From the IMG/VR virus record IMGVR_UViG_3300032053_000165, positions 1 to 42,176 of that record: a stretch of DNA of 42,176 nucleotides. One strand, 5' to 3'. Source of the DNA: a virus. The notes beneath the pieces are model-generated. The model saw nothing but the letters and a program-made list of their open reading frames with translations. It ran no database searches and was not told the DNA's origin. Shown piece after piece: positions 17,757 to 21,062 of the stretch. A program made the position numbers and the translations under genes. Every line of letters begins with the position of its first letter. Positions within the stretch are counted from its first letter, which is position 1.

Positions 17757-18050
17757 ATGCGCGTTCACATCTTCAAAACAGGAGATCCTGAGTGTCATCG
17801 CTGGACAGACGTCCAAGCAGGTGACATGGTACGCTCGTCTGGGACACTGGCATATAGTGCCAACATGTTTGCAAATAGGACATCAACAACCAACTGTTAC
17901 ACAATGGGAGGCGAGGTAAGCAAGGCACTGCTTCTCGTCATGTCACGTTTTGAAGGCATCCCAGGTGAACCCGAGAATGATGACTGCGTCACCTTTGTCT
18001 GCATGTCACGTCACGGAGTACTCGTCATCGTGCAGTACAAGTCAAAATGA
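17757..18050 (+). CDS. hypothetical protein
   Basis: 97-aa ORF. Confidence 0.45.
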   Translation: MRVHIFKTGDPECHRWTDVQAGDMVRSSGTLAYSANMFANRTSTTNCYTMGGEVSKALLLVMSRFEGIPGEPENDDCVTFVCMSRHGVLVIVQYKSK

Positions 18051-18274
18051 CACTCACAAAACGAAAGCGCCTGTACTTGGAATCAGCAAATCCCGTGCCT
18101 GGCGACATCGTCACATACGGCACGCCACGTCAAACTAAGCGGGCAATGGTCATCGGATTCGAGACTGAACGTCTAGAAAAACTCGTTGTCATGACATGTG
18201 ACGGACGCATTGGAAGTCTGTCATTGAACAATGTTACTTCAAGGAATTGGGACGATGAAGATTGTGACGTATAG
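18047..18274 (+). CDS. small paralog-family protein
   Basis: PVPGDIVTYGTPRQTKRAMVIGF; ATGA overlap. Confidence 0.5.
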   Translation: MTLTKRKRLYLESANPVPGDIVTYGTPRQTKRAMVIGFETERLEKLVVMTCDGRIGSLSLNNVTSRNWDDEDCDV

Positions 18275-18473
18275 TGACGCTGAGTCACTTCGATTTCGAC
18301 CGATGAACAACGCGGTCTGGTTCAGGCCTGGCACGATGATCACAACAGCAACACCGTCAAATGTCAGGGGCATCATCGTTGCTGTGAATGGCAAACGTAA
18401 TAATGGGTTTGAGATGACAGTACTGTGGTCAGTCGCACCGAGAAACGTCCCTGATCTTAGGGACTACATATGA
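18255..18473 (+). CDS. small paralog-family protein
   Basis: MKIVTY...RPGTMITT...GIIVAV...VLWSVAP. Confidence 0.45.
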   Translation: MKIVTYSDAESLRFRPMNNAVWFRPGTMITTATPSNVRGIIVAVNGKRNNGFEMTVLWSVAPRNVPDLRDYI

Positions 18474-18697
18474 GCATCGAACATTACGTCGGTCGAGACT
18501 GTGACATGTTCGAACCCGTCAATCGATATGACGTGTTTGCTCCCGGAGCAGTCATCACCAACAAGGGAATGCCGCACTACATGCGTGGCATTGTGATTTC
18601 AAACATTGAGACATGGAGCGGCGAACGTGAGCTCGTGGTGCTCTGGTCTGTCGCCCCCAAAGATTTACCAGCCATAGACAACTACATGGGCGTGTGA
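18470..18697 (+). CDS. small paralog-family protein
   Basis: APGAVITNK...GIVIS...VVLWSVAP; ATGA overlap. Confidence 0.5.
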   Translation: MSIEHYVGRDCDMFEPVNRYDVFAPGAVITNKGMPHYMRGIVISNIETWSGERELVVLWSVAPKDLPAIDNYMGV

Positions 18698-18706
18698 GGA
18701 ATATTC

Positions 18707-19207
18707 GTGAGCCAACTAAAGACATACAATTTACCCGACCTGATTGCTGTCAACTTCACCACTGGCGCCCAAGGGGGTTTACCGTGGAAAATGTTGAACA
18801 CCATTGAACCCGGTGAACCCGTACGTCATAAGGATGACCCGAACTCATATGGCATGTGCCTGTCCCGACGCTGGGGACCTGACGACAAGCCGATGCAGAT
18901 CGATGTCCTGTGGTCAAAGCAACCTGACATCCTCGACATTCAGGTTCAACAGATTACAGCAACCACACGCAAACTTCGAGCAAAATGGTCTGCTGAAATC
19001 ATTGAAGAAAAGTTCTATAGTGACATGGCATCTGGCGAGCTTGAAGCGCTCAACAATGAACCGGGTGTGAAAGATGTCATATTTCAACACGATGTCGCGT
19101 ATGGTGGCGACACAAAGGTGACAATCAAACGCGTCAATCCAGAACCTGATCCCGATGAGTCAATTTATGTGCCCGGGCTAAACGGTCAAGTCAAGTTCAG
19201 ACGGTGA
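18707..19207 (+). CDS. paralog-family protein with C-terminal extension
   Basis: MSQLKTY...GEPVRH...GMCLS...IDVLWSKQP. Confidence 0.5.
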   Translation: MSQLKTYNLPDLIAVNFTTGAQGGLPWKMLNTIEPGEPVRHKDDPNSYGMCLSRRWGPDDKPMQIDVLWSKQPDILDIQVQQITATTRKLRAKWSAEIIEEKFYSDMASGELEALNNEPGVKDVIFQHDVAYGGDTKVTIKRVNPEPDPDESIYVPGLNGQVKFRR

Positions 19208-19262
19208 TTCATGAACTTCTGTCAAAGACGGTGTAAGATGCTGTTACCATGCATCACTAGTT

Positions 19263-19535
19263 ATGGCAGAACGCTTCGAAACCCAATCCCGCCGACAGGT
19301 TCAACGCCGATTTCCACCAGGCAGCTATGCAATCGGTGAGTCTCGCTATGCCCTTTACCTTATTATCGCATGGACACAGCTTCCTGCAGTCAAGCGACTT
19401 GACGGCACGATCAGAAACGCCTCCAGTTGGGAGGCGACTGTCGTGGTAGGTAATGCCCGCATCGAACATCTGCGCTGGGAGAGCGTCCGCGGATGCTGGA
19501 CTATCGAAGAATGGGAGGAATGCTGTGCTTCGTGA
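19263..19535 (+). CDS. hypothetical protein
   Basis: 90-aa ORF; an antisense ORF of similar size exists, orientation chosen by block context. Confidence 0.3.
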   Translation: MAERFETQSRRQVQRRFPPGSYAIGESRYALYLIIAWTQLPAVKRLDGTIRNASSWEATVVVGNARIEHLRWESVRGCWTIEEWEECCAS

Positions 19536-19833
19536 AGAGTACATCGATGACCTTGCCCGTGCTGGATTGATTAGGTCGAATGACTACTGGCTACCGAAAC
19601 CGGGTGACCGTGTCTGTCTCGAGCCTCTTGGTCTCAAGTCAGAAGGTATCATCATTGCCGTGTACCCACATAATCCTGAGTGCGGCGACAGAGCGCTAGT
19701 TCTTTGGACGATTGATGTGTCAAAAGGAGCGAGGACGCTGGCAGAGGTCACACGCAACATGGCACGGCAGATTGCGGATGAGCAAGACAACGAGATCATG
19801 AAAATCCTCGACTCATTGAATGAGGATGCTTAA
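19525..19833 (+). CDS. small paralog-family protein (GTG start)
   Basis: PKPGDRVCLEP...GIIIAV...ALVLWTID. Confidence 0.4.
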   Translation: MLREEYIDDLARAGLIRSNDYWLPKPGDRVCLEPLGLKSEGIIIAVYPHNPECGDRALVLWTIDVSKGARTLAEVTRNMARQIADEQDNEIMKILDSLNEDA

Positions 19834-20243
19834 TGAGAGTCAAGACGTACGAGCACCCACTCGAACATGCGATCCTTCCAGTCTATGACCTCGAGCCCGG
19901 CAAGTTTCTTCAGCCGGGCGACTGGGTTAGACATGCCGACTGGACTGATAGTCTCGGTGTGTTGATTGCGAACAATGACGACTCTCTCACTGTTCTATGG
20001 TCCCGATTTCCTGGTCCGAGACAGCAGATCTTCAACAATCCGCTCGGCTCTCAGTCTTCAAATTACTTCGAGGTAGGTTACGTCTTTGCTCCATACGTTC
20101 CTCAGCTGAAGACGCCAACAATCTTCACACCTGAGGACTTTGCTCCCCGAAAAGGAATCATGACGCGCTACGGCAAGAAGCAGATCAATGCGTCGTACTA
20201 CGGGACCGTCAGCGTCATTAACATTGCGAGCGGAAGCACATGA
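19833..20243 (+). CDS. paralog-family protein
   Basis: MRVKTYEHP...QPGDWVRH...GVLIA...LTVLWSRFP; TAATG overlap. Confidence 0.5.
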   Translation: MRVKTYEHPLEHAILPVYDLEPGKFLQPGDWVRHADWTDSLGVLIANNDDSLTVLWSRFPGPRQQIFNNPLGSQSSNYFEVGYVFAPYVPQLKTPTIFTPEDFAPRKGIMTRYGKKQINASYYGTVSVINIASGST

Positions 20244-20476
20244 GCATCAAGACGTATGCGTGGCCGGCAAGTGATAACATCCTGCAATGGGACACGTCAT
20301 GCAATGCATTTCATTCTGCGCCCGGCGAAAGGGTGTTTCATCGTTCAACGCCAAAATGCGCCGGCATTCTGATCGCAAGAACCGAAAAGACGGTAACGAT
20401 TCTTTGGTCGACGCCTCCACAAGTTCCCATGTTCGACGATGCCGAACAGTTTGCAGGCTGGACTGATGCAACTTAA
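20240..20476 (+). CDS. small paralog-family protein
   Basis: MSIKTYAWP...APGERVFH...GILIA...VTILWSTPP. Confidence 0.5.
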   Translation: MSIKTYAWPASDNILQWDTSCNAFHSAPGERVFHRSTPKCAGILIARTEKTVTILWSTPPQVPMFDDAEQFAGWTDAT

Positions 20477-21062
20477 AACGTATGAAAGTGCGGGCTATGC
20501 TGAGTGGCTGAAGGGCATCCGACGCGTCGATCCGTTTGGTCGCAAGGATGTTAACACTTCGCATCTTCCCAAGCGCCCGGGCGACACGGTTGAACACGCC
20601 ACAGATCACGGTCGCGGCATTCTTATCGCAATCAATGATGACAATGTCACCATCCTTTGGTCGGTTGCGCCTGATGATCGCATCAGCCCATTCACAACAA
20701 TTGCGATGCCTAAGGTACGGCGCGTTTACGGTGGGTTAATCGCCAATCAACTCGTTAGCGTTCAGCCGATGAGCATGCCTTCAAGTCTCATCTTCTATCT
20801 CGACTATGCGTACGGCGAAGACGCTGAACTCAAAAAGAAGTGTACAGAAGGACCAATTCACAAGAAACTGTTCTGGAGAACATGGCGATGCCTGAAGAAA
20901 TCCACCCTATCACTGCGATCGTCATTGTCGTCCTACTGGCGGCGCTTGCGCATCAAACAATTACCACCAGCCGTGCCGAACGCAAACAACGACGTGATCG
21001 ATGCCGACTTGAAACACCGACTCATAGAGAAATGGATGAAGAACAGTGTCCGTCCACCTTGA
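20466..21062 (+). CDS. paralog-family protein with long C-terminal tail
   Basis: MQLKTYES...RPGDTVEH...GILIA...VTILWSVAP; low-complexity C-terminus, alternative small TM ORF 20840-21076 in another frame. Confidence 0.4.
   Translation: MQLKTYESAGYAEWLKGIRRVDPFGRKDVNTSHLPKRPGDTVEHATDHGRGILIAINDDNVTILWSVAPDDRISPFTTIAMPKVRRVYGGLIANQLVSVQPMSMPSSLIFYLDYAYGEDAELKKKCTEGPIHKKLFWRTWRCLKKSTLSLRSSLSSYWRRLRIKQLPPAVPNANNDVIDADLKHRLIEKWMKNSVRPP

Follow-up and report, generated by a model that had tools for sequence, protein, structure and literature searches.

We analyzed a tandem array of small genes carried by an uncultivated large phage (IMG/VR virus record IMGVR_UViG_3300032053_000165) and found that its products, judged by sequence, are chimeric proteins in which conserved linear segments of assembling virion proteins are displayed on a common module. 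The array lies at 18047–21062 of the 42,176-nt stretch studied (positions 1 to 42,176 of the record, hereafter the window, whose numbering is used throughout; genes are named by their start positions). The module comprises ~65–70 residues and follows the pattern M-x-L-KTY ... PGD-x-V ... G-[IVLM]3-A ... [VI]LWS-x-x-P, and in profile comparisons the tails behind it match the T4 gp23-type major capsid protein (MCP) in discrete classes and with solid statistics. A first-pass annotation had described the tails merely as variable C-terminal extensions; they proved instead to be defined, conserved segments of a T4-type MCP in a conserved order, with 25–75 residues of capsid sequence per protein. No description of capsid-fragment fusion proteins was found in the literature, and we rate the architecture of module plus capsid fragment, as read from these alignments, as categorically new.

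In Pfam and PHROG searches the C-terminal extensions matched the T4 MCP family, and the N-terminal module matched nothing. Residues 75–121 of the 20466 protein (N-type) correspond to positions 3–49 of the Pfam Gp23 profile (E 2.6e-10, 40.7 bits) and residues 72–121 of the 19833 protein (C-type) to positions 306–352 (E 7.7e-8, 32.6 bits), with a cutoff of 24.4 bits; the match of residues 77–99 of 18707 (mid-type) to positions 137–159 is weak at 13.4 bits. The complete 544-aa MCP of the huge phage LR756508 (L001), used as a tblastn query against the window, aligned in three pieces, with its residues 76–116 at nt 20694–20816 (59% identity), 298–346 at nt 18923–19060 and 465–538 at nt 20019–20216 (42% identity). 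A hidden Markov model (HMM) of ten full-length MCPs, including T4 gp23, gave E-values of 7.5e-21 for the N-type, 1.5e-17 for the C-type, 6.7e-5 for the mid-type and 0.39 for 19525 (spine-type), a class backed in the relatives P0030, P0077 and P0114 at 1.6e-3 to 3.6e-3. In T4 gp23 numbering, the tails represent the N-arm at ~87–139 (20466), the strand leading into the spine helix at ~252–276 (18707), the spine helix itself at ~289–316 (19525, in which the module is followed by the tail ...RQIADEQDNEIMKIL) and the C-terminal strands at ~439–520 (19833). The best PDB match of the N-type protein is to T4 gp23 residues 92–135.

Two of the proteins extend beyond the capsid segment. In 18707, the β module and MCP fragment are followed by a further tail that is conserved in mid-type relatives. 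In 20466, the N-arm segment is followed by a conserved basic helical tail (KKCxEGP...W-R...) and then by a fourth, C-terminal part, LIEKWMK (nt ~21012–21050), which relatives read as L-x-EKW-x-K-TGL; this matches the propeptide motif L-x-EKW-x-[RK]-TGLL-x-GL with which real MCPs begin.

The array consists of a run of small ORFs on the plus strand, with a GC content that is ordinary relative to the rest of the window. The eight consecutive genes listed by the first-pass annotation (18047, 18255, 18470, 18707, 19525, 19833, 20240 and 20466) are all present as claimed, and its report of linkage by ATGA/TAATG overlaps was borne out, with 4-nt ATGA overlaps at 18047, 18470 and 20240 and a 1-nt TAATG overlap at 19833. 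Start and stop codons also overlap by 11 nt at 19525 and 20466 and by 20 nt at 18255, and purine runs resembling Shine-Dalgarno sequences precede most of the gene starts. The junctions are those of a translationally coupled operon, as far as start and stop positions can indicate. The T4 late promoter TATAAATA was not found in the window, and scans for sigma-70 promoters and terminators gave matches at chance level only. A ninth gene within the array, 19263, was absent from the earlier list. It is conserved in three relatives and has no MCP tail, and alignment to the family by hhalign gave a 45% probability across its PG...IIA stretch, so that 19263 may represent the module in a much diverged form. 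The 17757 gene, at the array's head, has orthologues in the same position in L010, L014 and L029 (43–49% identity), and 18047, which overlaps it through an ATGA, is likewise conserved (35% identity in L029).

Window genes recur on independent assemblies from ENA, JGI and Logan, and orthologous arrays were compared in four distant relatives (L010, L014, L016 and the IMG/VR contig L029) whose proteins are 25–66% identical to those of the window. The order mid-spine-C-N is kept in three of the four (L010, L014 and L029); L016 reads spine, mid+C fusion, C, N, with the first two types rearranged and partly fused. The spine-type gene occupies the same array position in all four. The wider synteny is also conserved and comprises a gene for a protein like the major vault protein (MVP), 17757, 18047, the array, a 9853-like gene and a Metallophos phosphatase, with GroEL further on and one more family member directly downstream of GroEL. 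Among C-type orthologues, the tails are 45–66% identical versus 23–42% for the module. Relative to a 96%-identical variant, L019, the ratio of nonsynonymous to synonymous substitution rates (dN/dS) is 0.12 for 19833 and 0.21 for 18707. The architecture and order of the array are conserved and, by these sequence measures, under purifying selection.

These comparisons bear on the idea that the array is evolutionary debris, in which a duplicated capsid gene was broken up by a selfish small ORF, by introns or inteins, or by recoding, and is now functionless. The mid-spine-C order is collinear with gp23, which would suggest descent from one gene copy, and truncated members do exist (18255, 18470 and 20240). 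Against this, arrays only 25–66% identical still keep their ORFs, their order and the MCP consensus residues, the dN/dS ratios are low, and the same design recurs in ~150 protein clusters, so that we regard debris as very unlikely and largely refuted. The individual routes to a broken gene were also rejected. For an intron-split gene, no Rfam family was matched even at E<=1, and no intron or tRNA was found in the array. For an intein-split gene, no Hint, LAGLIDADG, HNH or GIY-YIG match was obtained, and the module ends in LWS-x-x-P, not in H-N followed by Cys, Ser or Thr. For stop-codon recoding, readthrough cannot join neighbors because they overlap in different frames (ATGA, TAATG, −11 and −20), each with its own conserved M-x-L-KTY start, and the long window genes (907 aa and 546 aa) are intact under code 11. 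One further fragment gene was observed in L010, where a small ORF at 1578–1868 matches the last ~83 residues of the MVP-like gene at 79.5% identity, far above the 40–50% of the neighboring genes; the rest of that gene is gone.

The variant L019 also carries a natural deletion. Compared with window positions 20243–21437, ~1.1 kb is missing (L019 2067–2230), which removes 20240, 20466 and a membrane-protein ORF (21183–21365) and leaves only an MSIK start. The 3' part of the L019 C-type gene is a recombination patch, with a dS of 0.78 versus ~0 in the flanking genes. Because 20466 is deleted in L019, at least one population can do without the N-type.

A truly split capsid protein, whose pieces would be brought together by the module to rebuild an HK97-like subunit of the phage head, would account for several features of the array. 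Between them the fragments represent the N-arm, both the spine helix and the strand running into it, and the C-terminal strands, which on our understanding of the HK97 fold make up most of the peripheral domain; the genes show translational coupling in a fixed order; and no intact MCP was seen in ~52 kb of the source contig (ENA ERZ27247916 k141_4571260, 73.7 kb). The LR756508 query returned only the three pieces described above and no intact MCP gene from the window, and the next 10 kb of the contig (L007) yielded neither an MCP nor a family member. However, the axial-domain core (~100 residues, ~366–464 of the LR756508 MCP) was not found in the window by tblastn, the N-type piece is the one deleted in L019, and the array lies outside any structural gene module. 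An essential capsid protein made in pieces is disfavored by the deletion together with the missing axial domain, and we consider it barely credible. The 19263 gene was rejected as the missing axial-domain piece (hhalign 0.1%). Capsid proteins in their own right were likewise rejected as an identity for the array products, since the Gp23 profile is covered only at positions 3–49, 137–159 and 306–352 of 376.

A model of the N-type protein was built with AlphaFold2 (AF2) from a 148-sequence alignment. The module (residues 1–70) is predicted with a predicted local distance difference test (pLDDT) score of 81–95 and contains strands at 2–7, 18–20, 41–44, 50–56 and 60–67 and one short helix. The MCP fragment (residues 71–117) has low confidence (pLDDT ~50–64), and the basic tail forms confident helices at 118–127, 131–162 and 180–194 (pLDDT >90). 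Model and profiles thus agree with the earlier proposal of a common small β-rich N-terminal module joined to different tails.

The same annotation had recognized no named domain in the family, and we likewise obtained no Pfam, NCBIfam, PDB or BFVD match for the module. Its suggestion of an SH3/Tudor-like barrel is weakly supported but plausible: AF2 predicts β strands and one short helix for the module, and the PGD-x-V ... G-x-G-[IV]-V pattern recalls the small barrels Tudor_1_RapA, CarD_TRCF_RID, PcrA_UvrD_tudor and MSSS (E 6e-4 to 0.2 in relatives), but the matches come from relatives alone and stay below threshold (Tudor_1_RapA 6e-4, MSSS 0.05, CarD_TRCF_RID 0.1). The best score was 20.2 bits (relative P0152) against a gathering score of 26.3, and window members gave none. 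DUF4314 (PF14192) is also a small β-rich phage or plasmid protein and has one copy in the window (9421–9624), but array members have no DUF4314 match and 9421 has no match to the family profile. The family start M-x-[LIV]-KTY-[E/N/A] resembles the capsid-targeting sequence (MKTYQEFIAE) of T4 IPII and IPIII, which start MKTYQEF; however, only three to four residues are common, too few for testing, and in the AF2 model KTY forms the first β strand of the module and not a detachable leader.

Membership of the family was assessed against the 413 window ORFs of >=40 aa. All-versus-all BLASTP of the eight array proteins gave reciprocal matches down to 1e-10, in agreement with the claim of a shared family. 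An HMM built from six array members alone recovered 10536/10662 (3e-5) and 27457–27696(−) (4e-5), one more iteration recovered 10865 (1e-6), and a profile of 151 relatives scored ten window ORFs at family-level E-values of 4e-21 to 3.5e-8. These ten firm members are 18255, 18470, 18707, 19525, 19833, 20240, 20466, 10662, 10865 and 27457–27696(−), and the invariant columns of their alignment are P-G, G and L-W. The M-x-[LIV]-KTY N terminus reported for four members is found in 18707, 19833, 20240 and 20466 (18255 has MKIVTY), and the GEPVRH element had been assigned correctly to 18707 (PGEPV).

The estimate of at least 15 members was too high: the count is 10 firm and 2 probable members, with five of the claimed ORFs over-called. 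Among the further copies proposed, 10662, 10865 and 27457–27696(−) are firm, 11071 and 8469 are probable, 9621 is only possible, and 9421, 12283, 13160, 26974(−) and 27251(−) were not upheld. The 9421–9624(+) ORF belongs to a separate named family, DUF4314 (E 3.4e-18, 65.8 bits), and 12283, 13160, 26974–27237(−) and 27251–27583(−) had HMM E-values >0.8 or were unlisted, with hhalign values <=4%. The lone minus-strand member has orthologues in L010 (16713–16943(−)) and L016 (9814–10050(−)), the latter ~43 bp from GroEL. A P-G-x-x-V or G-D-x-V element also starts ORFs 12283, 13160, 25994, 26236, 26454, 8717, 23860 and 1698 (all on the plus strand), none of which matches the family profile; the window may hold several unrelated small β-barrel families.

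When 1.84 billion cluster representatives were searched exhaustively with an HMM, 149 proteins scored E<=1e-3; almost every one is 52–220 aa long and carries the module at its N terminus, and two longer repeat proteins (P0069 and P0139) were set aside. The MCP HMM supports a tail in 57 of 155 retrieved proteins, and these tails fall into five discrete classes at the same five positions (N, 34; mid, 11; C, 5; the 'YVFAPYVPLQVT' class, 4; spine, 3 at the MCP HMM threshold, with more assigned to the spine class by motif). One relative, P0019, contains two modules in a single chain, arranged module-mid-module-C. In further relatives the segments come from the T4 portal protein gp20: the motif NPLS-x-DED-x-YIP resembles gp20 325–340 (MSMTEDYWL), and a second, DDV-x-Y-x-x-KKL-x-AAL-x-x-P, resembles gp20 360–378. 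For the second motif, positions 284–306 of Pfam Portal_T4 are matched at E 0.002–0.07 in three independent relatives, PHROG 213 matches as well, and one relative matches a tail-sheath PHROG at 1e-3. Because P0051 joins a module of the mid-type subtype (SRRW...PMQCEVLWS) to a portal-derived tail, modules and tails have been shuffled.

The family was rarely encountered elsewhere. Among 50,697 phage records, tblastn with the mid-type and N-type proteins found no family member, and only real MCPs matched the N-type tail; blastn against phage records gave a single 75-nt MCP-like match. Pattern scans found one IMG/VR locus (L029), none in GTDB genomes and, with mid-type patterns, none in JGI metagenomes. 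The 80 metagenome loci retrieved by a scan with the C-type alignment were rejected as family members, all of them being real MCPs. A word-index search with the C-type tail gave two C-type family members only and no close full-length MCP.

The best explanation for these chimeras, which we hold tentatively and at less than even probability, is that the tails act by mimicry, engaging gp23-type capsid proteins or their folding and assembly intermediates, probably as a hetero-oligomeric set. We infer mimicry because the fragments retain the consensus residues of the MCP and, by prediction, have no structure by themselves. The tails would make the same contacts as the corresponding segments in a real gp23-type protein, and the capsid subunits or intermediates bound could come from the phage itself or from T4-like phages infecting the same cell. 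The common module would probably hold the chimeras together as the hetero-oligomeric set, and capsid folding or assembly would as a result be modulated through chaperoning, through capping or poisoning, or through incorporation as minor head proteins. Low pLDDT in the fragment beside a confident module is as expected for a segment predicted to fold on its partner, and fixed gene order with start/stop overlaps would be typical of subunits that act together. The fragments are as conserved as the module, or more so. T4 gp23 depends for its folding on the chaperonin GroEL, and the conserved linkage of the family to a GroEL gene would count in favor of capsid engagement. The portal gp20 tails look like the same design applied to another assembling virion protein.

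Several points weigh against this explanation. The mechanism is read from sequences and a structural model only. Loss of the N-type and a short member in L019 would be easier to reconcile with an accessory role than with a core factor of assembly, and the array sits among small accessory-looking genes, with no virion structural genes seen by precomputed Pfam marks in the ~52 kb of source contig. The phage's own capsid protein is not known to be gp23-like. A fragment supplied in trans would have to compete with the cis segment of the full-length MCP, a contest that would be unfavorable where the element is intramolecular, as the spine helix is, and the spine-type call is weak for the window protein 19525 taken alone.

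Identity of the window tails to real MCPs of aquatic metagenomes reaches 72% for the N-type and is 53–62% for the C-type, and within 10 kb the contigs that carry those MCPs have no other gene in common with this phage. Such matches would fit weapons against competing phages, with dominant-negative fragments of the best-conserved gp23 and gp20 segments poisoning the heads of co-infecting T4-like phages and the divergent capsid of the producer escaping: the tails are closest to the MCPs of abundant aquatic T4-like phages, those contigs are otherwise unrelated, the word-index search with the C-type tail returned no close full-length MCP, and the array behaves as accessory and variable. However, this proposal uses the same molecular step as mimicry of gp23 contacts and differs only in its target, the producer's own MCP is not known, no precedent for poisoning by fragments was found, and the GroEL linkage is left unexplained. 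We regard it as quite unlikely.

A different class of partner is proposed if the chimeras are decoys or competitors for non-capsid proteins that read virion segments, such as immune sensors, the proteases of Gol-EF-Tu-Lit exclusion, EF-Tu or the chaperonin; the module would then serve as a soluble handle for a tail that keeps the sensor or factor occupied but does not set it off. Host-interaction, anti-defense or decoy functions had been raised by the first-pass annotation and may apply. The N-type carries the equivalent of T4 gp23 ~92–135, which we take to be the site of the EF-Tu-binding Gol peptide. Accessory behavior also fits, in the form of the deletion variant, copy-number differences, the truncated copies 18255 and 18470 and the tail swap in P0051, as does a location among small genes of unassigned function outside any structural module. 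Bacterial STAND/Avs receptors are reported to sense protein classes that include the mimicked ones (MCP, portal and possibly sheath) (PMC13581612, which names terminase and portal as sensed and whose title refers to the core phage proteome). Against decoys, a copied trigger might switch a sensor on just as readily as block it, and independent decoys would not need all four types in a fixed order. The residues kept include ones that, on the gp23 fold as we understand it, are expected to be buried and would form no surface epitope. No defense partner or anti-defense gene was identified nearby, PADLOC and the anti-defense libraries not having been searched. Decoys are the main rival explanation, a doubtful one on the unlikely side.

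More broadly, we consider it possible, though less likely than not, that the family forms a modular segment-display system, built on five segments of the capsid protein, two of the portal and perhaps one of the sheath and expressed as operons of mimics, that blinds host factors or immune receptors directed at the core phage proteome or sabotages the heads of rival T4-like phages. Either action, if true, would be a previously undescribed strategy. Virions are built from phage structural proteins, which are at the same time the main molecular patterns sensed by bacterial immunity, and this family appears to copy the most conserved capsid and portal segments onto a common handle under purifying selection. 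Mimicry, if true, would represent a new route for manipulating assembly, host factors or immune sensing and would point to short segments of gp23 and gp20 that are functionally addressable. The ~150 clusters that share the module make up a new, unannotated domain family. The small size of the proteins (70–200 aa) makes them directly testable, and T4 and E. coli supply a cognate capsid protein, GroEL, EF-Tu and Lit.

Table 1. Array genes, other family members and neighboring genes of the window, in order of position
Position	Strand	Feature	Support
8469..8720	+	Probable divergent member (KVY...RPGDLVWC...GYALCVAS...VMWG)	HMM E 0.0035; hhalign 66%
9621	+	Possible member	HMM E 0.075; hhalign 27%
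10662..10868	+	Dispersed member	HMM E 6.6e-10; 3e-5 with array-only HMM
10865..11074	+	Dispersed member	HMM E 3.5e-8
11071..11319	+	Probable divergent member (PGALGIIVCV...YVLWSKP)	HMM E 0.001; L010 orthologue 3e-5
14957..17680	+	MVP-like gene, 907 aa, immediately upstream of array	Pfam MVP_shoulder E 5.4e-28, Vault_3, Vault repeats
17757..18050	+	Conserved 97-aa gene, array head	Not family by profile (hhalign 3%)
18047..18274	+	Possible divergent member (PGDIV...AMVIGF, without LWS motif)	HMM E 0.02; hhalign 26%
18255..18473	+	Family member, short tail, 72 aa	HMM E 1.6e-17; BLASTP vs 18470 1e-10
18470..18697	+	Family member, short tail, 75 aa	HMM E 7e-13; ATGA overlap with preceding gene
18707..19207	+	Mid-type, 166 aa, GTG start	Domain HMM E 1e-19; MCP HMM E 6.7e-5
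19263..19535	+	Conserved 90-aa gene inside array (QSRRQVQRRF-PG...IIGW), without MCP tail	Orthologues in L010, L014, L029 (34–49% identity)
19525..19833	+	Spine-type, 102 aa, GTG start	Domain HMM E 4.5e-9; MCP HMM only E 0.39
19833..20243	+	C-type, 136 aa	Module, then C-terminal MCP segment (nt 20019–20216)
20240..20476	+	Family member, short tail, 78 aa	HMM E 1.2e-20; ATGA overlap with preceding gene
20466..21062	+	N-type, 198 aa	Module, MCP N-arm segment (nt 20694–20816) and two further parts
21183–21365	+	60-aa hydrophobic ORF just after array, Pfam PF28077 (THIVI_2564)	Source gene calls
22161–22784	−	Protein with IF2_N-like region	
24539–24817	−	IF1/eIF-1A-like protein	
27457..27696	−	Lone member downstream of phage GroEL gene, same strand	HMM E 1.3e-8
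28084..29724	−	Phage GroEL/Cpn60	Pfam Cpn60_TCP1 E 3e-68; L016 copy 74% identical

L029 (74% identity over 900 aa) and L014 carry the MVP-like gene at the same place upstream of the array, and a preprint reports MVP homologues in phages (10.1101/2023.11.10.566534). The combination of GroEL with IF1/eIF-1A-like and IF2_N-like proteins is what large phages with chaperone and translation genes typically encode. Precomputed Pfam marks at 33603–34520(−), 32828–33595(−), 38671–39255(−) and 40009–41501(−) indicate ADP-ribosylglycohydrolase, TANGO2-like, NUDIX hydrolase, papain-like peptidase and phage lysozyme domains, and a 5'-3' exonuclease lies just beyond the window.

The closest known protein is the T4 gp23-type MCP itself (PF07068; PDB 5VF3, 6UZC and 7VS5), to defined segments of which the tails are homologous, keeping the consensus residues VQPM..P.G.IFY, SRKLKA.WS, EID..I, APYVP and F.PRKG.MTRYG. 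Unlike gp23, the array proteins have no complete HK97 fold, and each piece is placed behind an unrelated β module in a separate small gene. The N-type tail, which aligns with the best-conserved region of gp23 (~92–135), is also comparable to the Gol peptide of T4 gp23 in Gol-Lit-EF-Tu exclusion, a peptide that presumably falls within the N-type's ~87–139 segment. The Gol peptide comprises 29 residues in the first quarter of gp23, binds EF-Tu and is the most conserved part of gp23 (PMC3014915). The N-type segment differs in that it stands outside any capsid protein. Satellite elements hijack helper capsids through P4 Sid, SaPI CpmB and the cf-PICI capsid homologue Ccm, which are small or MCP-related proteins that engage the helper capsid protein during assembly. 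These show no sequence relationship to the array proteins. Some are unrelated scaffolds and others complete HK97-fold homologues, whereas the array sets short MCP segments on a common module, and the element described here looks like a large phage and not a satellite. Viral pseudosubstrate mimics, with neither a sequence nor an architectural relationship to the family, are its conceptual relatives only.

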